Shown: piece by piece, positions 2,832 to 49,575 of the stretch | Numbering within the stretch: the stretch's first letter is position 1 | Layout: each line of letters begins with the position of its first letter | From: Candidatus Thorarchaeota archaeon | GTDB taxonomy: Archaea; Asgardarchaeota; Thorarchaeia; Thorarchaeales; Thorarchaeaceae | DNA length: 64,000 bases | Assembly: GCA_048882325.1 (NCBI GenBank) | Contig: JBHLRS010000009.1 | Location: 4,207 to 68,206, forward strand | Direction: 5' to 3' | Notes under the pieces: model-generated | Told to the model about the DNA's origin: nothing | The model's input: only the letters and a program-made list of their open reading frames with translations | Databases searched by the model: none | Translations under genes and position numbers: made by a program

Positions 2832-4097
2832 TCACTTCCTACTCTGGAGTATTTTAGACACTACTGCACGAGCTTGTGTCACACTCTCAGGAACTTCCGC
2901 AGGCCCCAAAGCTGTACCACAAGCATAGACATGGTCGCCAACGACGACTTCATTCTCTGATACTGGATCTGCGATTCCAACAAATCCACTAGCAGAATTC
3001 ATTCCAAGTGTTTCAATGAGTTTGTCAGTACCCTTGGGAGGCTCTAGGGCTGACGAGAGGACAAAGAGGTCAACTGAGTACTTGAGATATTTGTTCAAAA
3101 GCGAGTCATAGACAGTTATGTCTAATGCTCCATCTTTTTGGGGCTCAATCAGAGATACTCTGCCTCGGATAAACTCCACTCCTGAATCTCGAGACTCACG
3201 ATAATACCGTTCGTACCTATCATACGTGCGGATATCCATGTATACTACACTGACTTTGACATCATCCCGTTCTTGAACCAGAATGTTGGCATGTTTGAGA
3301 GCGAAGATGCAACAAATCTTGGAGCAATAAGGATAGTAGTTTTCGTCCCTGCTCCCTACACACTGAACCATCATCACTCGTTTAGCAGGTTTTCCATCAG
3401 AGGGCTTTACAAGAACTCCTCTCGACTCTCCATTCGGGTCAATTATCTTTGCTAGTTCAAGCTGAGTTATGATGTTAGGGTGCGTTCCGTAGTAATACTC
3501 ATTCACGTTGATTGGTTGCAGCTCATGATAACCTGTTGCAATGATGATGTCTGAAATCTGGACTGTTTCTTCACTGGGTTGAGCCTTCAAATTGATCGCT
3601 TTTGTAGGGCACTCTTGTTCAGCCTGTTTAGCACCATCATCTGCTTTTGTTGGATCGTAAACCACGGCCTGAGGTTGACATTGGGGTGACAGTAAGCGAA
3701 ACGCCTGTGACTTTTCAAGACAGAGTCCACACATCGTACACTTCTTTGGGTGGACATATGCAGGGCCTACTTTGATCTTTGCCATGAACTGACCAGGGGT
3801 TCCTGAGATGTCTTCTATTTCACTGTTCATCTTCAGAGTTATATTCGGTTGGTCGATCAGTGCGCTTCTGTAGAAGCACTTTCGAATTCCAGGACGCCAG
3901 CGGTTTCCTTCAAAACAATAGAAGCAATCATCTGTAGGGAATGCCTTGTAGAGATTCAGAGCGTTACCACCAACAGTTTTTTGGCGCTCAACAAGGATCG
4001 ACTCAATCCCTGAGTCCGCCAGTTCCACGGCAGCAGTCATGCCTGCTACCCCTGCTCCGATGATGAGGACCGGATTAGACACTCTTACACACCTCAT
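2832..4097 (-). CDS. Short HdrA-like FAD-dependent oxidoreductase paralog.
   Basis: N-terminal dinucleotide-binding motif IIGAGVAGMTAAVELA. A CTMCGLC Fe-S motif. Collinear similarity to the central part of the adjacent HdrA. Confidence 0.65.
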   Translation of the reverse strand: MRCVRVSNPVLIIGAGVAGMTAAVELADSGIESILVERQKTVGGNALNLYKAFPTDDCFYCFEGNRWRPGIRKCFYRSALIDQPNITLKMNSEIEDISGTPGQFMAKIKVGPAYVHPKKCTMCGLCLEKSQAFRLLSPQCQPQAVVYDPTKADDGAKQAEQECPTKAINLKAQPSEETVQISDIIIATGYHELQPINVNEYYYGTHPNIITQLELAKIIDPNGESRGVLVKPSDGKPAKRVMMVQCVGSRDENYYPYCSKICCIFALKHANILVQERDDVKVSVVYMDIRTYDRYERYYRESRDSGVEFIRGRVSLIEPQKDGALDITVYDSLLNKYLKYSVDLFVLSSALEPPKGTDKLIETLGMNSASGFVGIADPVSENEVVVGDHVYACGTALGPAEVPESVTQARAVVSKILQSRK

Positions 4098-4975
4098 CCA
4101 GTCACGTGGTCGAGAATGGGGTCTGCTGGGACCCTGTTCATACTTAGTCCTACCTCTTCTTCACCCATTCCCAGAGCCAGACCGAGGATTTGAGGATAGA
4201 AGATTACTGGCAAGTTGTATTCTTCACCATATGATTCCTTCAGACCGAGTTGCTGAAGATCAAGCTGGTTGCCACATGCAGGACAGACTACTGTAATGAA
4301 GACCGCACCGAATTCTTTCATTGATTTGAGTTTGTCTCGAGCTAACCGAATTCCTAGATTCTCATCAACAGGGAGAACTGTGGCACCACAACATTGTTTC
4401 CAGAGAGGATAGTCCACTACTGAGGCGCCAGTGGCTTGGACTAACTCATTCAGATACTCGGGCTTGAATTCAGTCACATCCACTGGTCGAAGGAGATGGC
4501 ATCCATAGTGAATCGCGATTCCTACCCCATCTAGTGGTTTTGTGACCCTAGCCTTGATCTCTTCGACACCAATATCGTTGTACAGAGCTTCGACAAAATG
4601 GCGAGGAGTTGCTGTACCCTTGAATTCAAGACTCTCCTTCTTTAAGGTGGCATTGACCTTCTTCCTGTAGCCTTCATCATGTTTGAGAAAGTGGTATGCG
4701 TCTTTTAGTGACGCAAAACAACCATTGCATGGAGTAACTATGTCGTGACCGTTCTTCTCCGCAATCGCTAAGGTTCTTGCATTGACAGTGAGCCAGCCCA
4801 TGTAGTCTATGGAACGAAGATTGGGACTTCCACAGCATGCAACTCCCTCCATGTACTCTAACTGCATGTCAAAAGCTTCAGCGACCTTTTGCATGGCAGT
4901 TTCGTAATTTGGATAGTTTGCAGGCACACTGCACCCCATGTATAGATTATATACTGGCACCTTACTCATCACCAT
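4094..4975 (-). CDS. hdrB: Heterodisulfide reductase subunit B (HdrB) with CCG domains.
   Basis: Cys-rich CCG-type motifs VACCGSPN and KQCCGATV, plus VVCPACGN. The gene is translationally coupled to hdrA2 and hdrC by overlapping starts and stops. Confidence 0.8.
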   Translation of the reverse strand: MVMSKVPVYNLYMGCSVPANYPNYETAMQKVAEAFDMQLEYMEGVACCGSPNLRSIDYMGWLTVNARTLAIAEKNGHDIVTPCNGCFASLKDAYHFLKHDEGYRKKVNATLKKESLEFKGTATPRHFVEALYNDIGVEEIKARVTKPLDGVGIAIHYGCHLLRPVDVTEFKPEYLNELVQATGASVVDYPLWKQCCGATVLPVDENLGIRLARDKLKSMKEFGAVFITVVCPACGNQLDLQQLGLKESYGEEYNLPVIFYPQILGLALGMGEEEVGLSMNRVPADPILDHVTG

Positions 4976-18494: not shown

Positions 18495-18611
18495 TGGTGC
18501 GGAGGGCGAGATTCGAACTCGCGGACTTCTACAAGATTACCCCGGTGCCGCAAGCGCGACTCCGTCAGGATCCTAAGTCCTGCGCCTTTAACCTGGCTTG
18601 GCTACCTCCGC
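18495..18611 (-). tRNA. tRNA-Leu (anticodon TAG), class II, with an oversized variable/T-arm region suggesting a ~28-30-nt intron. CCA is encoded.
   Basis: Acceptor GCGGAGG/CCTCCGC. Anticodon stem CAGGA/TCCTG with loop CTTAGGA. T-arm GCGAG-TTCGAAT-CTCGC. There are 43 nt between the anticodon stem and the T-stem, against an expected ~15. Total length is 117 nt. Confidence 0.65.
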
Positions 18612-29336: not shown

Positions 29337-30851
29337 CTATTTGTCAGATTTCTTCACAGCATCGGACAGGCTTTTGATTATACCAGTTGGTTCAAATTTC
29401 CGCTGACGTATTTTGACAAATGTGGGAACTGCTACCGTTTCGCCAACAAAAAGCGATTCACCAATTTCAAGAGTAGTGATCGAGTCCAATGAAGAGCGAT
29501 CGATACCCTCACTTGACTTACCAATATGGTCCAGATCGTATGGATTTGTGCATCTGAAGATGGCTTGATTGCTACATTGACTTAGAACTGTCGTGGAGAG
29601 TTTCACCGGTCTTTGAGAGATTAAGCAGAGAAGTGCGTAGAACTTTCTACCTTCTCGTGCAATTGTTTCAATACGACTCTTTGGTAAGGCGAGCTCGTGT
29701 CGGCTCTCAGGACAAAACTGGTGAGCCTCCTCAAGAACTAGTAAGAACGGTGGAATCTGCTCACGTCGCCTTAGATGGAGAAGTTCACTAGCCAAGTGGG
29801 AAACGATGATTTGCTTCTTCTTAAGACTAATAAAATCGCTTAGGTCAATCAAGGTGATTTTCCCTGGCCTCACTACTGTATTGATGTTTGGAACAGCCTC
29901 TTTCCCGAAAAGTCCGGTTTCATCAAGATTGATCAACCAGCCAGAAAGTGCCTCACGTGTGTTCTTGCTGATTTTTTCATCACTCTGGACATACTCTACA
30001 ACATCTGCTAACGTGTATCCCTCTCTCAGTGAGCTCTTCATCTCTGACACAACTCTGCGCAAGTCTCTGACTTGAATTGAACTCATGTCTGATACAAGAG
30101 ACCCTATCGCTTCTGCAGAAAGCGTTTGGACAGGTATCTGAAAATGTGAACCTCTGATATGCTCAATCTCAAATTGTCCTTTCGGTAATCCAAGGGCTTC
30201 AGGAGTGATATCCTGCAGATATGTGTATTCACCATGTACATCTACGACAACCACCGAAAGTCGACCTCTTTCCTTAAGCCGGGAGAGTAGCTCCTCCAGA
30301 AGAACTGACACAAAATAGGACTTGCCAGCACCGCTCATTGCTAGTATTGCTAGATGTTTGGAAAGTAAACGGTCAAGTGATGGGGCAAACTCCAGATTTT
30401 GATATGCTAACCGACCAAGATGAAGACCTTTTTCCAAGTCTAGTTTCAGAAAGGAGGCAAGAATATCTTCGTCAACTCTTCTAACAACAGCTCCTGGAGA
30501 CACTGCAAAGTACGGTCGAACGGTTCGACCTTCACTCCATAGACCCAAAACCCTTGCCATAGCAATTGTGTACTGCCATCGGTCTGTTGGAAAGATCGAT
30601 CGCAGTGGTTCGCCCCTTGATTGGTATTCGCGAACTGCTTCTGCATGTTGGTAATATCGGTTTGTACGTATTAAATCTTGAACCCTCGCTATCACTGTAC
30701 CTGCATCAGTGACAACTGAAATGAATTCCCCACGGCGTGCAACAATTTCTTTAGGTCCACCTTCGAGCACAAATGAAAATTCCATTACACTTGGACCAGC
30801 ATCAGTTGAAACAACGGTTCCAAGTCGTGTGGTTGATGAAAATTCAGCCAT
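29337..30851 (-). CDS. herA: HerA-type hexameric DNA translocase/helicase (HAS-barrel plus FtsK/HerA ATPase).
   Basis: Walker A AILAMSGAGKSYFV. Walker B region LLVLEEAHQF. It is paired with nurA. Confidence 0.8.
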   Translation of the reverse strand: MAEFSSTTRLGTVVSTDAGPSVMEFSFVLEGGPKEIVARRGEFISVVTDAGTVIARVQDLIRTNRYYQHAEAVREYQSRGEPLRSIFPTDRWQYTIAMARVLGLWSEGRTVRPYFAVSPGAVVRRVDEDILASFLKLDLEKGLHLGRLAYQNLEFAPSLDRLLSKHLAILAMSGAGKSYFVSVLLEELLSRLKERGRLSVVVVDVHGEYTYLQDITPEALGLPKGQFEIEHIRGSHFQIPVQTLSAEAIGSLVSDMSSIQVRDLRRVVSEMKSSLREGYTLADVVEYVQSDEKISKNTREALSGWLINLDETGLFGKEAVPNINTVVRPGKITLIDLSDFISLKKKQIIVSHLASELLHLRRREQIPPFLLVLEEAHQFCPESRHELALPKSRIETIAREGRKFYALLCLISQRPVKLSTTVLSQCSNQAIFRCTNPYDLDHIGKSSEGIDRSSLDSITTLEIGESLFVGETVAVPTFVKIRQRKFEPTGIIKSLSDAVKKSDK

Positions 30852-30854
30852 TTG

Positions 30855-32018
30855 TTAGCCTCCAAAAGGATTTCTTGAACGTCTTTTCTCAAGTGTCAAA
30901 TAGGTGAGCCCAGATAAAGCCATGAGACGGTCGATGATTAATCGTGTTTCATTGGTAGTAATCTTTGCCCTTGCATCAGCCTCAAGAATTGGAGTAGGCA
31001 CTCCGTACTCAGGATGCTGTGAAGCTAAGGGGAGTATCGCAGAAAGAGCTTTATCCAGTTTGTCTGTGACTGCATCATCGTCCTCAGCTGAAAGATACTC
31101 CACTCTTATTGGTAAATCATCTCTTGCAGTCTTCAGATATGTGACCCAGATTGATGATGCCCAGGCAGACAAATCATCACTCGGAGAATTTGTATTAAGA
31201 ACAAGCTCTGATGAGTATCGAAATGCAAAGGACCTTTCTCCTTCCTCCAAGAATGTATCAAGGAGATCACAGTCTCGAGATATTTTGAGTAACCATCTAT
31301 AGTCAACTCCTTGCATCATTTCGAAGATTTCTGGTTTTCGAACAATGTGAGGAAGAATTTCACCCATTATCGTAGCTACACGTGTTGATCTACTATCTTT
31401 GACAATACCGATCAACGTTGTACCTTTCTTCCGGGCTTTGTGATAGAGTTGTTTGTAAAGAGATAGAACCTCTTGGAATTTCTCATATACAATAGAACCG
31501 GTTTGGGGACGGTCTCGAGGGTGATAGAATAAGGATCCATCCAATAGTATCAAATCCGTGTGATACTCTTCAAGAACTGATAGTGTGACTCTGAGTTCTG
31601 CTGCAATTCGTTCTAGTGATGCAAACTGGTCCAATTCAATACTAGACAATGTTAACATTAGTGGACTTATTTTTGGTTCAGGAAATGCATCAGGATAGAA
31701 ATCAACAATTGGACCATCTTCTGGTCCAAATTGGAAAATAACAGCAACCCCCCGCGTCAAGACCAAGTCCATCGATCTAAATCGTTTTCTGACCAAACCC
31801 CCATCAATCCCCGCAATTCTGAGACCTGATAGATTTGTAGGTTCTATCTTCGTGTAGAACTGTTTGTCAACAATATTCGACGCAACCGCTGGGAATTTGC
31901 CTAGGTCAATTTTACTTCTGACATTTCTGAGGACATCGCCAAAGCGTTCTCTTGTCACCTCGATATGCTCAATCTCCTCAACCAATTTTGATAGTAACTT
32001 ATCGAGGTTTCTTTCCAC
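30855..32018 (-). CDS. nurA: NurA 5'-3' nuclease.
   Basis: The catalytic N-terminal motif IAGIDGGLV and the later LLDGSLFY. Partnered with herA. The nurA start overlaps the pyrG stop. Confidence 0.75.
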   Translation of the reverse strand: MERNLDKLLSKLVEEIEHIEVTRERFGDVLRNVRSKIDLGKFPAVASNIVDKQFYTKIEPTNLSGLRIAGIDGGLVRKRFRSMDLVLTRGVAVIFQFGPEDGPIVDFYPDAFPEPKISPLMLTLSSIELDQFASLERIAAELRVTLSVLEEYHTDLILLDGSLFYHPRDRPQTGSIVYEKFQEVLSLYKQLYHKARKKGTTLIGIVKDSRSTRVATIMGEILPHIVRKPEIFEMMQGVDYRWLLKISRDCDLLDTFLEEGERSFAFRYSSELVLNTNSPSDDLSAWASSIWVTYLKTARDDLPIRVEYLSAEDDDAVTDKLDKALSAILPLASQHPEYGVPTPILEADARAKITTNETRLIIDRLMALSGLTYLTLEKRRSRNPFGG

Positions 32019-33820: not shown

Positions 33821-34402
33821 TCATGAAACTGGTTGAGCAAGTATACTTGCACGCATAGCACTCTGAAAGAGATACTGAAATGCTTCCATAATGTTATGAC
33901 CCTCTCTAGCGACGCTCCTGAAGACAGGCACAGATGATGGAATTCTCAAGTGTGACCTAAGCTGTTCTTCTTGTATGGCACTTGGGAGATCTTGTTTGTT
34001 GAGACACACGATTAACGGCAGAGGTCGCTCCTCCTCTTCAATCATTGACATTAACTCATTCCAACTTGCCAGATTTTCATCAAGGAGATGTTCTTGAGAG
34101 TCTGCAACAAAAATCACTCCATCGGCCCCGACCAGCACGACTTCACGTGTAGACCTATAGAAGTCTTGACCTGTGGCAGACCAAACATGTGCATTGATTG
34201 TCCAACTATTACTCAGTGAAAAAGGAATAGTGCCAAAATCACAAAACATTGTTCTTCCAACAGTGTTCTCAATTGATGTCAGTTTCTCAGCATAGTCTAA
34301 TGAAGAAAACAGCCAACGAATCGAGGTTGTTTTTCCACTCATTGCAGGTCCAAAGAAGACTATCTTGAGTCCCACCGTACGATTGCCATAGTCGATTATC
34401 AC
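33821..34402 (-). CDS. MglA-like Ras-superfamily small GTPase.
   Basis: G1 IVFFGPAMSGKTT. RTMFCDF as in MglA RTLFFDF. Switch II TGQDFYRS...VGADGVIFVADSQ parallels MglA's PGQVFYDAS...KGVDGVVFVADSQ. G4 is NKQD. Confidence 0.75.
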   Translation of the reverse strand: MIIDYGNRTVGLKIVFFGPAMSGKTTSIRWLFSSLDYAEKLTSIENTVGRTMFCDFGTIPFSLSNSWTINAHVWSATGQDFYRSTREVVLVGADGVIFVADSQEHLLDENLASWNELMSMIEEEERPLPLIVCLNKQDLPSAIQEEQLRSHLRIPSSVPVFRSVAREGHNIMEAFQYLFQSAMRASILAQPVS

Positions 34403-34417
34403 TTATCTGACCCCCAG

Positions 34418-35338
34418 TCATGTTCCCCACATGCTGTCTACCCACGCTCCGAGTCCCGACAAAGCTCCGCTTTTTACACAATCAGAGAAATCTTCATGCC
34501 ATTCAGCTCTTATGAATTGAATCAAATCAGGAAGCTCTCCTCCATCCCATCCAATGGCTTCATAGAGGTTTCTCTCTGTCAATGTTGTGGATGCGCCAAG
34601 TTCCCTAGCTAGACGAATTCTTGACAATAGAGTGACTGCTCTACGGGCTGCATGAACATAGTTGTTTATCTCTTCTTCAAACACATCTTGTGTGAGTTTC
34701 TCTGACTCGTCATCTAGTTTCAGAACAGCATTGAGAATGTGCTCTGAAACTTTGAGTCCACGAAGTGACTTAGTGAGGAGTCGTCTGATACGTTCTAGAG
34801 ATTGTTTCTTTCTCACCAGGATCTTGTTCACAATTTTCTTCTCAACCTCAAGACTGCTATTTGATGGTCTAACAAGTGAGAAAGTAATGGATGATGGTGA
34901 ACTCACTCTTAATATTCCACAGTTGCCTGAATTTTTGAGAATATGAGCGGTTACATCTTGGAGCGTACTTTCAGTTACTTGTACACCTAGCACTGTGAAA
35001 CCGAGAGGTACAGCAAGGATCCAACCTGCAAAGTGTGAGATTCTATCCATTGCTAGTCGAAGATTCCCTGAGAGACCACAAACAATAGTCCTACTCACCT
35101 CATAGTTGTGTTTTTCCTCCTCCCATACTGCGAGAATCTCGGATTCGGAAGTGAAATCACGCCAGAACACAAGTTTGTGTCGATGAGGACAGAGAGTAGT
35201 CAGACTCTCTGTGATATCATCTACTAGTTCGATATCCTCACCTGCGACAATCACTGGCATCCGTTCCAGTAATGCATTCAATAGAAGAGGAAATTGGTCG
35301 CCCATCAACTCGATTAATTTCATGATTGAGTATGTCAT
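34418..35338 (-). CDS. Hypothetical 306-aa protein in the MglA-like operon, with a possible Roadblock-like N-terminal segment.
   Basis: It sits between the tandem-Roadblock gene (ATGA overlap at 35335-35338) and the GTPase gene (15-nt gap). The MPVIVAGEDIELVDDI segment loosely resembles the Roadblock G-x-x-G...D-G strand. There is no P-loop. Confidence 0.45.
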   Translation of the reverse strand: MTYSIMKLIELMGDQFPLLLNALLERMPVIVAGEDIELVDDITESLTTLCPHRHKLVFWRDFTSESEILAVWEEEKHNYEVSRTIVCGLSGNLRLAMDRISHFAGWILAVPLGFTVLGVQVTESTLQDVTAHILKNSGNCGILRVSSPSSITFSLVRPSNSSLEVEKKIVNKILVRKKQSLERIRRLLTKSLRGLKVSEHILNAVLKLDDESEKLTQDVFEEEINNYVHAARRAVTLLSRIRLARELGASTTLTERNLYEAIGWDGGELPDLIQFIRAEWHEDFSDCVKSGALSGLGAWVDSMWGT

Positions 35339-36282
35339 GGTTCTCTCCTCGTTAACATTAAGCCACCATCAGAACCTCCTGACAGCAGCAGCTCTTTCAG
35401 ATCATCTGGAACTGCGGGTTTCACTGCAGAAGCGGCAGCTAAAACTCTTCGTATCTCCTCAATGTAGTGTTTCAGTAACAGTCTCATCAAACCGAGTTTC
35501 TGGCTATCTTTATCCACCCACAGGCTAAACACGCCATTTGGAACAGCATAGATGAAATGGCGAGTTTCAGCTGTTTCACAGAGAACGGTCTGTAATGAGC
35601 TGTTCCGGAGTGTTCGTACTACTCGTTCTGACGCATCATGAAGTGCAAAAGACATTGCAGCCAATCGGTCGTTAGTAAACCCTTCTAATGAAACTCGGAC
35701 TCCACCACTTAATGAAAGAAACACGGATCCAATATTAGGAATGCAGTCATGTACTTGGCGTAAAAGAGCTCTGAGACTAAGTGCTTGTGAGCGATCAAGG
35801 GAAATCATGGAGCGTGATACACCATAACTTGTATCACGACCCTCTGCCACAGCAAACCCTTGAAGTACTTTCTGAGTTTCGTCGATACTATAAGAACGGA
35901 GTGGAGGTAATCTTCCGTCTACATGTTCTCTCAGAAGAAAAGAAAGTCTAGATAGATTATCCTTCATCTCAATAAATAATGCAGCTAGATTAACTCTGGG
36001 TGCTGTTGTTACTGTCAGAAAATAGTCTGGATCATTTGGCAACGAAGCAAGAAAGACCTTCGATGTATCAGACTCCATCAGTAGATAATTGAAATCACCA
36101 TGTATGAGTTTAGCCACTCCGAAGATTGCACAGGTCGATGATGCCACAGCAAAGACTTCATCCTTGCTGAACCATACTCCTGCGCTTGCAACGGGGAGTC
36201 CATCTTTTTGGATTAAAACGACATTCTCAACACCGGTGATGGCTTTTATGTTCTGGAGAGTTTCAGTCAATTCGTCGCTCAA
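35335..36282 (-). CDS. Tandem Roadblock/LC7-domain protein (MglB-like pseudo-dimer).
   Basis: First repeat: LQNIKAITGVENVVLIQKDGLPVASAG...FAVASSTCAIFG. Second repeat: ALLRQVHDCIPNIGSVFLSLSGGVRVSLEG...RLAAMSFALHDASERVV. Confidence 0.65.
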   Translation of the reverse strand: MSDELTETLQNIKAITGVENVVLIQKDGLPVASAGVWFSKDEVFAVASSTCAIFGVAKLIHGDFNYLLMESDTSKVFLASLPNDPDYFLTVTTAPRVNLAALFIEMKDNLSRLSFLLREHVDGRLPPLRSYSIDETQKVLQGFAVAEGRDTSYGVSRSMISLDRSQALSLRALLRQVHDCIPNIGSVFLSLSGGVRVSLEGFTNDRLAAMSFALHDASERVVRTLRNSSLQTVLCETAETRHFIYAVPNGVFSLWVDKDSQKLGLMRLLLKHYIEEIRRVLAAASAVKPAVPDDLKELLLSGGSDGGLMLTRREP

Positions 36283-36333
36283 GTCCTCAGCTCCGGACGG
36301 AAAGTTGGGTTCAACTTAGAATCCTTCTCGCGA

Positions 36334-36342
36334 CTATATAAC
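36334..36342 (-). promoter_or_regulatory. Putative TATA box (minus-strand TTATATAG) about 55 nt upstream of the Roadblock/MglA operon start.
   Basis: The sequence cgaCTATATAAcc lies in the 135-nt intergenic region before the first gene of the three-gene operon. Confidence 0.25.
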
Positions 36343-36417
36343 CACCACACAGAATTGAAAATCAAACACTTTCTCTTTGCAAGTTCTTTAAGATCGTGTA
36401 TATGGACTGGAGCTTTA

Positions 36418-37739: not shown

Positions 37740-38483
37740 TCACATCTGAGGGTCGAAAGATCGTATCTCTCGTACTAATTCCTCGGCAGAATCTATTTTT
37801 GATATACATAAAGGTAGGTGTATGCTGTCAGCTATCTTTACAGCAAGTGGATCCAGCTCTTTCACACCTTGTAGAATCACCACTGCTGGTTTTACAGCCA
37901 CCGAGGTGCCAATCTGACTGGCTTTTATTGCCACCATTGGAGACCGGCCAGTGGTAACATTGGTGAGAACTGCTCCACGTTGAGTCGTTCCACCATAAAG
38001 ACGAAGTAGTTGCTGTGGAGTCAAACTGACAATAGCTTTGATACTATCAAGAACAGTATAACCATAGATGTCCCTATCGAGTAAGTTCCGGTGGGTCAAG
38101 ATTTTACAGTCAAGATGATTCACAAGCAGACGTGATGGTATTGGAACCCCAAATTCACGGCTATCAAGGATTGCATCAGAAGAGATTTCGGGAGTGATAA
38201 GTTTCTCCAGGGCTATTGCTACCCTTCCACCCTCAGATGCATCCATCTCAATTAATCCTTCCACAAAACGTTTGATTGTTTCCACTCGGGGTGATTTCCG
38301 TCTTCCACTCTCATAGTCACTAATTACTGAGGGTGAAACATTGAGATGTTTGGCGAGATTCTTCTGGGAGATGTGAAATCTTTCACGCCACCGTCGCATT
38401 ACGGCGCCAGGATCGCTCTCTGCGAGGCAAATCTCACCAGCCATTGCTTCTGCAAGTCTCCGGAGCGCCTCACTATTGTCCAT
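37740..38483 (-). CDS. XRE-family HTH domain protein with a C-terminal domain of unknown function.
   Basis: The N-terminal HTH region RFHISQKNLAKHLNVSPSVISDYESGRRKSP. Confidence 0.5.
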   Translation of the reverse strand: MDNSEALRRLAEAMAGEICLAESDPGAVMRRWRERFHISQKNLAKHLNVSPSVISDYESGRRKSPRVETIKRFVEGLIEMDASEGGRVAIALEKLITPEISSDAILDSREFGVPIPSRLLVNHLDCKILTHRNLLDRDIYGYTVLDSIKAIVSLTPQQLLRLYGGTTQRGAVLTNVTTGRSPMVAIKASQIGTSVAVKPAVVILQGVKELDPLAVKIADSIHLPLCISKIDSAEELVREIRSFDPQM

Positions 38484-38598
38484 AACCTGTTTGCTCTTGA
38501 GAATCGCTATAAGAGTTGTGCACTACTGGTTAGTGACTGGCGGGATTGTACCGAAGGACTCAAAGCAGTTGCTTGAGCTGTTCGGATTGGTTCTGCAT

Positions 38599-39363
38599 AT
38601 GTTTTTCACGTTCATTGTTGGTACTGCTGGGTCAGGAAAATCTCTACTCACTGCATCACTGGAGAAGTGGCTTGTTGGGTCGGATTTGAGTGTGGCTGTT
38701 GTCAATTTGGACCCTGGTGTTGACTCTCCACCGTATACAAGTAATGTCGATATCAGGGAATACGTAGACTACGGGGAAGTAATGAGTTCATTTGGCTTGG
38801 GTCCAAATGGGGCTCTTGTAGCTTCACTGGACATGGCAGTTAGTAGTGTAAACGATATGAGAGATGAGATTATTGATACCGATCGAGACTATGTTTTAGT
38901 AGACTGTCCTGGACAGATGGAGCTTTTTGCATATCGAAATTCCGGACCTTTGATGGTTTCTAGTCTCAGTGGTGATGATCCTTCACTCTCTCTATATTTG
39001 CTTGATTCCAATATTGCTAGAACTCCTACTGGCTATCTCTCTTCAACTCTATTGGGAATCTCGATTAGTATACGATTCAGCTTGCCACAACTGAATATCT
39101 TGAGTAAGCCAGATATCTTGACTGAGGAAGAGGTGGAAGAGATTGTAGGGTGGGGTTCAGAACCATATTTGCTTGAGGAGGCACTAGAATCATCTTCAGA
39201 AGGACTGCGAAGAGAGTACTCGAGGTCGATTATGGAGATGCTCGAATCTCTAGACACTGCAATTGGTAGTGTACCGGTTTCAGCTAAAGAAATGACTGGG
39301 ATTGATTTGTTGTACGGGGAAATGCAACGTATTTTTGCAGGTGGAGACAATCTATACGAGTGA
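38599..39363 (+). CDS. GPN-loop GTPase (XAB1/Npa3 family).
   Basis: P-loop FIVGTAGSGKS. The GPN motif GLGPNGALV. DCPGQMELF. The start was moved to the internal Met (MFFTFIVGTAGSGKS) because the upstream 41 codons are hydrophobic read-through. Confidence 0.7.
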   Translation: MFFTFIVGTAGSGKSLLTASLEKWLVGSDLSVAVVNLDPGVDSPPYTSNVDIREYVDYGEVMSSFGLGPNGALVASLDMAVSSVNDMRDEIIDTDRDYVLVDCPGQMELFAYRNSGPLMVSSLSGDDPSLSLYLLDSNIARTPTGYLSSTLLGISISIRFSLPQLNILSKPDILTEEEVEEIVGWGSEPYLLEEALESSSEGLRREYSRSIMEMLESLDTAIGSVPVSAKEMTGIDLLYGEMQRIFAGGDNLYE

Positions 39364-49466: not shown

Positions 49467-49575
49467 TGGTGCTCCGGCCGGGATTCGAACCCGGGTCGGG
49501 GGATCGAGAGTCCCCCATGCTGGGCCGGACTACAGTCGGTATCATTGTAAGGAATATACAATGCTCTACCGGAGC
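49467..49575 (-). tRNA. tRNA-Glu (anticodon CTC) with a ~33-nt intron in the D-arm region (non-canonical). CCA is encoded.
   Basis: Acceptor GCTCCGG/CCGGAGC. The D-arm 3' part TAGTCCGGCC matches archaeal tRNA-Glu. Anticodon stem GGGGA/TCCCC with loop CTCTCGA. T-arm CCGGG-TTCGAAT-CCCGG. An extra segment after position ~9 contains the hairpin ATTGTA-TATTCCT-TACAAT. Confidence 0.65.

Follow-up and report, generated by a model that had tools for sequence, protein, structure and literature searches.

The window, a 64,000-nucleotide stretch of a Candidatus Thorarchaeota contig, contains three adjacent genes on the minus strand, and re-reading of the DNA confirms all three open reading frames. Gene 1 (36282-35335, TTG start) encodes a tandem Roadblock/LC7 protein of 315 amino acids, a putative MglB-like pseudo-dimer. 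Gene 2 (35338-34418, ATG start) encodes a stand-alone DENN-domain protein of 306 amino acids without longin/uDENN, and gene 3 (34402-33821, GTG start) an MglA-type small GTPase of 193 amino acids. The host is an archaeon of the Asgard group (Thorarchaeota), in agreement with the original prediction, which had been made from the DNA letters. Genes 1 and 2 are joined by an ATGA overlap at 35338-35335, and a 15-nt gap with GGGGG ahead of the GTG start separates gene 2 from gene 3. The translational coupling claimed earlier is borne out by these junctions, and the TATA element said to precede it is present as TTATATAG at 36341-36334, with the TTG start of gene 1 located 59 nt downstream.

The TATA-like element belongs to a promoter-like block, CTGTGTGGTGG-TTATATAG (36334-36352, minus strand), which was recognized by direct reading and by comparison of Thorarchaeota upstream regions. 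Over 40 distinct upstream regions of Thorarchaeota share the consensus of the block, CTGTGTGG(T/A)G(G/A)TTA(T/A)ATAG, and farther upstream their sequences diverge. Such conservation in more than 40 Thorarchaeota genomes is far beyond chance, and the block presumably acts as the promoter. The TATA box is followed, at a distance of about 20-30 nt, by a GATTCTA..TTGAAC element (36309-36323, minus strand), which is kept across Thorarchaeota loci and is possibly the transcription start or an operator region. The Shine-Dalgarno-like GGAGCTGAGGA (36284-36294, minus strand) is found directly ahead of the TTG start codon of gene 1 (36282-36280), and GG(A/G)GCTGAG together with the TTG codon is kept in most Thorarchaeota loci.

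Among PDB sequences searched with phmmer, the GTPase encoded by gene 3 is closest to the MglA proteins of Thermus thermophilus (8e-30) and Myxococcus xanthus (2e-28), with scores of 100+ bits. The next-best matches, Arf (4e-9) and Rab (about 1e-8), trail MglA by 20 orders of magnitude. The earlier assignment of the protein to the MglA type is thus upheld. The Pfam models matched are Arf (9e-13), Ras (2e-8) and, weakly, Gtr1_RagA (4.7e-5); the true Rab-like neighbours found in Hermod loci match the Ras model at 1e-42. Judged by sequence, the GTPase is clearly MglA-type and not Rab-like. It also differs from Rag, having no C-terminal Roadblock domain.

The motifs of the GTPase were compared in an alignment of 87 sequences, comprising 86 relatives encoded at related loci and the window protein. 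The hallmarks of a Ras-like G domain (GxxxxGK[ST] in G1, threonine in G2 and [NT]KxD in G4) are all found in gene 3. The P-loop, GPAMSGKTT (G1, 34325-34351, minus strand here and for the following motifs), is kept in 81 of the 87 sequences, and the guanine-specificity motif NKQD (G4, 33989-34000) is conserved in the family. G1 and G2 are 27 residues apart in gene 3 versus 29 in T. thermophilus MglA, the latter counted in the phmmer alignment; the spacing is 18-19 in Ras and Arf. In switch I, GRTMFCDF (G2, 34235-34258), R50 adjoins T51 at the position of the intrinsic arginine finger of MglA, and the pair aligns with the R-T of both T. thermophilus and M. xanthus MglA. All eight of the commonest motif variants, accounting for 79 of the 87 sequences, contain G-R-T. 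In group-1 MglA the intrinsic arginine is positioned by MglB (PMC4316618), and from the alignment R50 would provide this group-1 feature in gene 3. Switch II reads SATGQ (G3, 34166-34180), with serine in place of the aspartate of DxxGQ and with the catalytic glutamine (Q79) retained; the family consensus, [S/T]ATGQ, likewise lacks the aspartate and keeps the glutamine. The arginine beside the G2 threonine and the missing G3 aspartate are common to gene 3 and bacterial MglA, whereas the G3 motif itself, TVPGQ in group 1 and GTPGQ in groups 2-5, differs in each published MglA group from the consensus found here (PMC4316618). The VGADGVIFVADSQ block (34132-34094), quoted in the original prediction along with GRTMFCDF, SATGQ and MPVIVAGEDIELVDD (35260-35216, in gene 2), is present as well.

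The two halves of the gene 1 protein each match Roadblock structures in profile searches (4.9e-5 and 4.3e-8), and the order of secondary structure elements is that of the Roadblock fold (a-b-b-a-b-b-b-a). The best structural match is MglB, and one homolog has a precomputed Pfam match to the LAMTOR3 family (PF08923). The structure model has a pLDDT of 74 and a pTM of 0.73, the former being limited by a shallow alignment (12 relatives, obtained with an Odin-type Roadblock query). In domain 1 (residues 1-120, 35923-36282, minus strand, as are all features of genes 1 and 2 below) the loop joining strands 1 and 2 is still the canonical Q-x-D-G-x-P (36210-36193), and family alignments show little or no variation at Q25, D27, G28 and P30. 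The corresponding loop of domain 2 (residues 164-282, 35437-35793) has diverged to GG. Whereas MglB dimerizes from identical chains with one Roadblock domain each, gene 1 joins in a single chain two domains that have diverged from each other, which suggests that the modelled tandem forms an intramolecular pseudo-dimer, as had been proposed from the sequence. The linker at residues 122-157 (pLDDT <50) carries a PPLR motif (residues 126-129, 35896-35907), in which P127, L128 and R129 never vary among Thor, Odin, Hermod and Loki-type sequences, and P126 is kept in at least 90% of them. As a matter of speculation, PPLR might be a partner-binding motif or provide a trans-acting arginine. R267 is invariant like R129. 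The C-terminal tail (residues 288-315, 35338-35421) contains a short conserved helix, P-x-D-L-K-E-L-L, predicted with low confidence at residues 293-299 and flanked by the nearly invariant P292 and L300. By analogy, this helix may correspond to the C-terminal helix of MglB.

The middle protein is identified by structure comparison. Its model (pLDDT 91) has strands at residues 29-33, 54-58, 84-88, 106-111, 140-147 and 150-156 with helices between them, and shows the architecture of DENN proteins: a three-layer alpha/beta core with a parallel sheet (residues 5-156, 34871-35326) is followed by an all-helical, dDENN-like part (residues 164-304, 34427-34849). The top matches are DENND10, the folliculin C-terminal domain, C9orf72, SMCR8 and DENND1A. 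The original prediction had seen a Roadblock-like segment in MPVIVAGEDIELVDD and had put the protein forward as a candidate third regulator, either an MglC-like paralog derived from Roadblock or a GEF. The segment is instead the first strand-helix unit of the DENN core. That impression was the one point in favour of the paralog, which is refuted by the predicted secondary structure and the matches to DENN and retains practically no probability; a GEF, in contrast, would fit the role of DENN proteins in eukaryotes. Nor is the protein an unrelated housekeeping enzyme. A degenerate P-loop NTPase-like domain of the secretion-ATPase or RecA-like kind, with a function unrelated to DENN, was also considered; ATPases align with the model over 118-172 residues. 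In both of two independent structure comparisons, however, DENN proteins head the ranking, with 178-189 residues aligned, the helical part included. A conserved Walker A or B motif was looked for in the family and none was found, and the weak Pfam matches that recur are to Folliculin_C and DENN rather than to ATPase families. The NTPase-like reading is rejected on the structural ranking and the lack of Walker motifs, and is very improbable.

Similarity of gene 2 to eukaryotic DENN proteins at the sequence level is at the limit of detection. The window protein does not match the Pfam DENN or Folliculin_C models. Of 32 relatives, only two match Folliculin_C, both short of the gathering score (4.8e-4 at best), and one matches the DENN model at 0.093; in one relative (P0137) the weak Folliculin_C match falls on the N-terminal unit of the core. 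A phmmer search of PDB sequences with gene 2 returned nothing, and the family profile recovered no DENN protein from them. The sole Pfam/NCBIfam match of the window protein, Sec2p at 0.16, is noise, and ferritin-type PDB matches of the family profile, due to a charged helical stretch, were judged spurious. R26, P28, R53 and E75 are invariant in the family. It is a small one, 1.84 billion proteins yielding 65 clusters at 50% identity, and its named members are all from Asgard archaea and annotated as 'hypothetical'. There is no N-terminal longin domain in the gene 2 protein, which begins at the helix preceding the alpha/beta core. A fused longin was ruled out in a relative of 400 amino acids (P0136), which has only a disordered insertion.

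Conservation of the triad was followed in 80 related loci, gathered from GTDB species genomes by means of the GTPase alignment. The full triad is syntenic in 68 of them, and a contig end truncates two others. The genomes with the triad are labelled Thor, Odin and Loki/Promethearchaeota, with one Hermod case, and include Odinarchaeota AUK032 (L085) and the cultured Ca. Lokiarchaeum ossiferum (L087). The gene order Roadblock-DENN-GTPase is constant from Thor to Odin and Loki. At seven of the 80 loci, Hermod-labelled and Promethearchaeota-labelled, the Roadblock and GTPase genes occur without a DENN gene between them, so that a tandem Roadblock gene lies upstream of the GTPase in 75 of 80 loci and the pair does not require a DENN protein. 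Outside Thor-type genomes the triad has no conserved effector gene as a neighbour, and no RomR/RomX, Frz or motility genes are among the annotated flanking genes.

Liu et al. have described an operon encoding Roadblock, small GTPase and DENN proteins as 'conserved in most Asgard archaea' (bioRxiv 10.1101/2020.10.19.343400, Fig. 5b). A folliculin-like module and role are proposed for it there, and its GTPase is distinguished from Rag. The three kinds of protein and the host group are the same as here, and the comparison with the preprint text makes it very probable that the present triad is that operon. The two accounts differ in that the GTPase is termed 'Rab-like' there and is MglA-type here; the preprint text says nothing of a tandem Roadblock, of the PPLR linker or of the promoter footprint. 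The triad was already known as a computational prediction for most Asgard archaea in 2020/21; it is therefore real and evolutionarily interesting, but not new, and the suggestion of a new regulatory system was overstated. The present analysis adds the MglA-type class of the GTPase and the pseudo-dimeric Roadblock protein with its invariant PPLR linker and, for the Thorarchaeota copies, the shared promoter footprint and the TTG start.

Taken as a whole, the locus is probably the Thorarchaeota copy of the Asgard Roadblock-DENN-small GTPase operon, functioning as a self-contained three-protein GTPase switch made from one transcript. The GTPase contains all the guanine-nucleotide motifs, and R50 and Q79 would serve as its own arginine finger and catalytic glutamine. 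By analogy with the MglB dimer, the tandem Roadblock protein would bind the switch face of the GTP-bound GTPase and position the intrinsic arginine and glutamine; hydrolysis would thereby be accelerated, making the Roadblock protein a GAP. The DENN protein may act on the same GTPase as an exchange factor or co-regulator. It could be an exchange factor as DENND1 is for Rab35, or it could bind the Roadblock pseudo-dimer, the two together creating, in trans, a longin-like-plus-DENN platform reminiscent of folliculin-FNIP or C9orf72-SMCR8. A longin-like function could be supplied to gene 2 only in trans, by gene 1. The GAP and GEF assignments could be reversed, because in Ragulator, Mon1-Ccz1 and TRAPP it is Roadblock and longin dimers that serve as GEFs, and reports on MglB describe it both as a GAP and as a GEF.

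A rather unlikely alternative makes the Roadblock and DENN proteins a single obligate regulator, a split folliculin-like complex in which the Roadblock part is catalytic (GAP or GEF) and DENN is only a scaffold or dimerization element, as in FLCN-FNIP2 and C9orf72-SMCR8; R129 of PPLR or R267 could then be a trans-acting finger. The presence of the folliculin C-terminal domain, C9orf72 and SMCR8 among the best structural matches speaks for it, as do the invariance of both arginines and the absence of a longin in gene 2, with two longin-like domains supplied by the overlapping gene 1. The folliculin analogy is also drawn by Liu et al. (bioRxiv 10.1101/2020.10.19.343400). However, the G-R-T of 79 of the 87 GTPases already provides an intrinsic finger and one in trans is not needed, the DENN gene is missing from Hermod-type loci, and the arginine finger of these eukaryotic complexes is located in a longin domain, not in a linker (PMC12290439). 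Less probable still is a two-component MglA/MglB core whose GTPase, when GTP-bound, would recruit DENN as an effector or adaptor acting further downstream, without any influence of DENN on its nucleotide state. Against this stands the position of the DENN gene, which in Thor, Odin and Loki lies between the other two and is translationally coupled to both; genes so placed usually encode stoichiometric partners. Characterized DENN modules, moreover, act directly on GTPases (PMC3521125).

The preferred reading, the self-contained three-protein switch, has features of both bacterial and eukaryotic systems. The Roadblock gene beside the GTPase gene is common to the triad and bacterial MglA/MglB (M. 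xanthus, T. thermophilus); the triad differs in the DENN gene inserted between the pair and in its archaeal host. With eukaryotic DENN modules (DENND1-Rab35 GEF, folliculin-FNIP, C9orf72-SMCR8, DENND10) it has in common the central DENN and helical fold, and the company of DENN with a small GTPase and a domain of the longin/Roadblock type. Eukaryotic DENN carries the longin as an N-terminal fusion and has Rab, Rag or Arf as clients; in the triad the longin-like element forms a protein of its own, the tandem Roadblock, and the client is MglA-type. Ragulator/Rag and the further Roadblock-longin platforms (LAMTOR2/3, Mon1-Ccz1, TRAPP) are heterodimers of separate chains, which scaffold Rag or Rab7 or act on them as GEFs. 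Zhang et al. (2012) have derived the longin of DENN modules from MglB-like GAPs of MglA-like GTPases, and hypothesized a link between MglA/MglB and DENN (PMC3521125). It is tentatively suggested, with considerable doubt, that the triad preserves, unfused, the ancestral state of the eukaryotic DENN module, in which a Roadblock pseudo-dimer and a free DENN protein act jointly on an MglA-type GTPase with its own arginine finger. If so, a bacterial-type MglA/MglB switch would be linked directly to regulators of the folliculin, C9orf72 and DENND type, and the PPLR linker would be a docking or catalytic element lost or replaced upon fusion. Ca. Lokiarchaeum ossiferum, which has the triad and is in culture, would allow this idea to be tested.

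The operon work of Liu et al. reportedly appeared later in Nature in 2021. With the operon already published as a prediction, the window adds detail (GTPase class, tandem Roadblock, linker and promoter) and not a discovery. Eukaryotic membrane traffic and nutrient signalling depend on Rab, Rag and Arf GTPases that are controlled by DENN, longin and Roadblock regulators, and where these regulators came from belongs to the question of eukaryogenesis. An Asgard archaeon encodes the Roadblock, DENN and MglA-type GTPase elements as separate, co-translated proteins, which makes for a small, soluble-looking system suited to biochemistry and structure work.

The triad is encoded by three consecutive minus-strand ORFs, found exactly where the original prediction had placed them: gene 1 (36282-35335, TTG start, 315 aa), gene 2 (35338-34418, ATG start, 306 aa) and gene 3 (34402-33821, GTG start, 193 aa). 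The peptide motifs that it had quoted are all at their expected places. Genes 1 and 2 overlap in an ATGA, and gene 3 begins 15 nt past the end of gene 2, preceded by a G-rich stretch. Liu et al. (bioRxiv 10.1101/2020.10.19.343400, section 10 and Fig. 5b; Nature 2021) have described an operon 'conserved in most Asgard archaea'. These parts of the preprint give its products as a Roadblock-superfamily protein resembling LAMTOR1, a small GTPase that is Rab-like and differs from Rag, and a protein with a DENN domain, and a folliculin-like exchange-factor role was proposed. Compared with the preprint text, the window locus is very probably an instance of this operon, of which the literature searched contained no other treatment.

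The four best PDB sequence matches of the gene 3 GTPase are the MglA proteins of Thermus thermophilus and Myxococcus xanthus (E 8e-30 to 2e-28, >100 bits), followed by Arf and Rab proteins at about 1e-8 to 4e-9. The spacing between G1 and G2, counted in the PDB-match alignment, is 27 residues in the window GTPase and 29 in T. thermophilus MglA. In Ras and Arf it is 18-19. The G1-G2 insertion has been described as bacterial by Wuichet and Søgaard-Andersen. In an alignment of the window protein with 86 relatives from the retrieved loci, G1 reads GPAMSGKTT (81 of the 87 sequences), G3 [S/T]ATGQ and G4 NKxD, and G2 is G-R-T in every motif variant listed. R50-T51 aligns with the R-T of MglA, and this G2 arginine is the intrinsic finger in group-1 MglA (PMC4316618). 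As in MglA, the G3 of the Asgard GTPase has no Asp, but its sequence is neither the TVPGQ of MglA group 1 nor the GTPGQ of groups 2-5, which argues for an MglA-type clade with its own G3 variant. No lipid-anchor cysteine was found at the GTPase C-terminus. The 'Rab-like' label was rejected for gene 3 because the protein matches Pfam Ras at 2e-8, against 1e-42 for a genuine Rab-like GTPase encoded a few kb away from its counterpart in a Hermod locus (one protein checked, from locus L083).

The product of gene 1 had been predicted to be a pseudo-dimeric MglB, and several lines of evidence support this. Pfam finds Robl_LC7 in two stretches of the protein, and with a family profile built from 20 diverse members solved Roadblock proteins match residues 4-114 at 4.9e-5 and residues 166-286 at 4.3e-8. 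In addition, hhalign aligns one half with the other (E 2e-5). The AlphaFold model (pLDDT 74, pTM 0.73) contains two complete a-b-b-a-b-b-b-a units, residues 1-120 and 164-282, with a low-confidence linker between them. The canonical QxDGxP loop is retained in domain 1 and has GG in its place in domain 2. The linker contains a PPLR motif, invariant in loci labelled Thor, Odin, Hermod and Loki-type, and the C-terminal tail a short conserved helix; any function ascribed to the loop difference, the motif or the helix is conjecture.

The gene 2 protein of the window has no usable match in Pfam, NCBIfam or PDB sequences. It belongs to a small family, which forms 65 clusters at 50% identity in a set of 1.84 billion proteins, and each named member is an Asgard 'hypothetical protein'. 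The AlphaFold model, based on an alignment of 32 members with 20-75% identity, is confident (pLDDT 91.3, pTM 0.87) and combines a core of alternating strands and helices (residues 5-156) with an all-helical part (164-304). Foldseek ranks folliculin first (probability 0.99), followed by FLCN, DENND10, the C9orf72 complex and DENND1A/B. Two of the 32 members match Pfam Folliculin_C (best 4.8e-4) and one matches Pfam DENN (0.093). The segment originally taken as Roadblock-like lies inside the N-terminal unit, where one relative's weak match falls, and that assignment did not hold. M1, R26, P28, R53 and E75 are invariant, and the 32-member alignment contains no Walker motif. At the level of the fold, the model indicates with high confidence a stand-alone DENN domain without the longin domain; homology to eukaryotic DENN is probable, sequence giving no proof of it. 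Zhang et al. (2012) proposed MglB-like GAPs, acting on MglA-like GTPases, as the ancestors of the longin domain found in DENN modules. One relative, P0136 (400 aa), has an acidic low-complexity insertion of ~100 residues within the alpha/beta core and no extra domain.

A scan with the GTPase alignment, covering one genome per GTDB species, yielded 563 relatives, and the best 80 loci were examined. Roadblock, DENN and GTPase genes are tightly packed in the window's order in 68 of these, and two more triads are cut by a contig end. The triad is present in Odinarchaeota AUK032 and in the cultured Ca. Lokiarchaeum ossiferum. In the latter (CP104013.1, L087:2075-3082), Roadblock domain 1 is in frame a few codons past a TGA with no ATG, GTG or TTG before it, and the first canonical start would remove the domain; this could be an unusual start codon (ATA?) or an annotation trap. 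A frameshift in a Thorarchaeota MAG (L054:3059-3980) divides the DENN gene into two overlapping ORFs, either as a pseudogene or through an assembly error. Three of the 80 loci (L067, L070, L073) encode a paralogous Thor GTPase behind a HerA-like ATPase. This GTPase (at about 4001-4565 in each locus) is MglA-type, shares 58-70% identity with the window protein and lacks Roadblock and DENN neighbours in the three loci; two ~640-aa proteins precede it, one without a Pfam match and the other with a HerA/DUF87 ATPase domain (1.7e-14). It may belong to a different GTPase module.

Beyond the observed domain identities, intact catalytic motifs, gene coupling and conservation, we infer a probable MglB-like action of the tandem Roadblock protein: docking on the switch face of the GTP-form GTPase and stimulation of hydrolysis by way of the intrinsic R50 and Q79. 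This GTPase is probably also the target of the DENN protein, which could be a DENND1-type exchange factor or, alternatively, could make a folliculin-like platform together with the Roadblock pseudo-dimer. Another possibility is that the DENN protein is an accessory or effector, and two arrangements leave room for this. In seven of the best 80 loci (L079-L084 and L086, from Hermod-labelled and 'Promethearchaeota'-labelled MAGs) the tandem Roadblock gene directly precedes the GTPase gene, 6-7 nt away, without a DENN gene; in Promethearchaeota GCA_054681365.1 (L007:3052-4936) two tandem DENN-like paralogs lie side by side, adjoined by neither a small GTPase nor a Roadblock gene. One or two genuine Rab-like GTPases are encoded ~1.5-2 kb downstream of the DENN-less pair in L081, L083 and L086.

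The triad of the window is flanked upstream by genes for an HD-domain phosphohydrolase and an HTH protein, and downstream by CTP synthase and a NurA/HerA-like pair. These are ordinary genes common to the annotated Thor-type loci, L076 likewise having the HD-type gene and CTP synthase, and are absent from the Loki and Odin loci among the annotated flanks compared. No effector gene is kept beside the triad outside Thor-type genomes in the loci compared. For each of the three proteins, nearly all homologs bear the label Candidatus Thorarchaeota, and among genomic matches the GTPase comes closest to Thorarchaeota AB_25 (96% amino-acid identity). The NurA nuclease and HerA-like (DUF87) ATPase genes (29337-32018, minus strand) directly follow CTP synthase, and gene order is kept all the way from the HD-domain gene to the HerA-like gene in three loci of an examined 80%-identical relative (L001-L003). 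A GPN-loop GTPase-like ORF lies at 38476-39363 (plus strand), and its counterpart in relatives matches Pfam ATP_bind_1. Two minus-strand tRNAs were each found by one method: a 114-nt match at 18498-18611, probably intron-containing, by Rfam and not ARAGORN, and tRNA-Glu(CTC) at 49471-49541 by ARAGORN and not the Rfam gathering-threshold scan.

In Thorarchaeota a clear footprint covers the 60 nt before the Roadblock gene; it is located at 36284-36352 (minus strand) in the window and shared by >40 genomes. In the window, TTATATAG lies 59 nt upstream of the TTG start. The conserved elements are a CTGTGTGG.G.TTA(T/A)ATAG block, in which GTGTGG abuts the TATA box, GATTCTA..TTGAAC and an SD-like GG(A/G)GCTGAG. 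The non-canonical TTG start is kept almost everywhere in this set, which suggests that expression of the Roadblock gene is regulated or deliberately weak.

The original observation is confirmed and its interpretation partly supported. The system has already been described computationally, and the present data leave its category unchanged. The MglA-type GTPase with its distinct G3 motif, the MglB-like tandem Roadblock protein with its PPLR linker, the putative DENN protein lacking a longin domain and the promoter footprint together with the TTG start are refinements that may help bench work. The triad is a real and conserved system that bears on how eukaryotic GTPase regulators originated.
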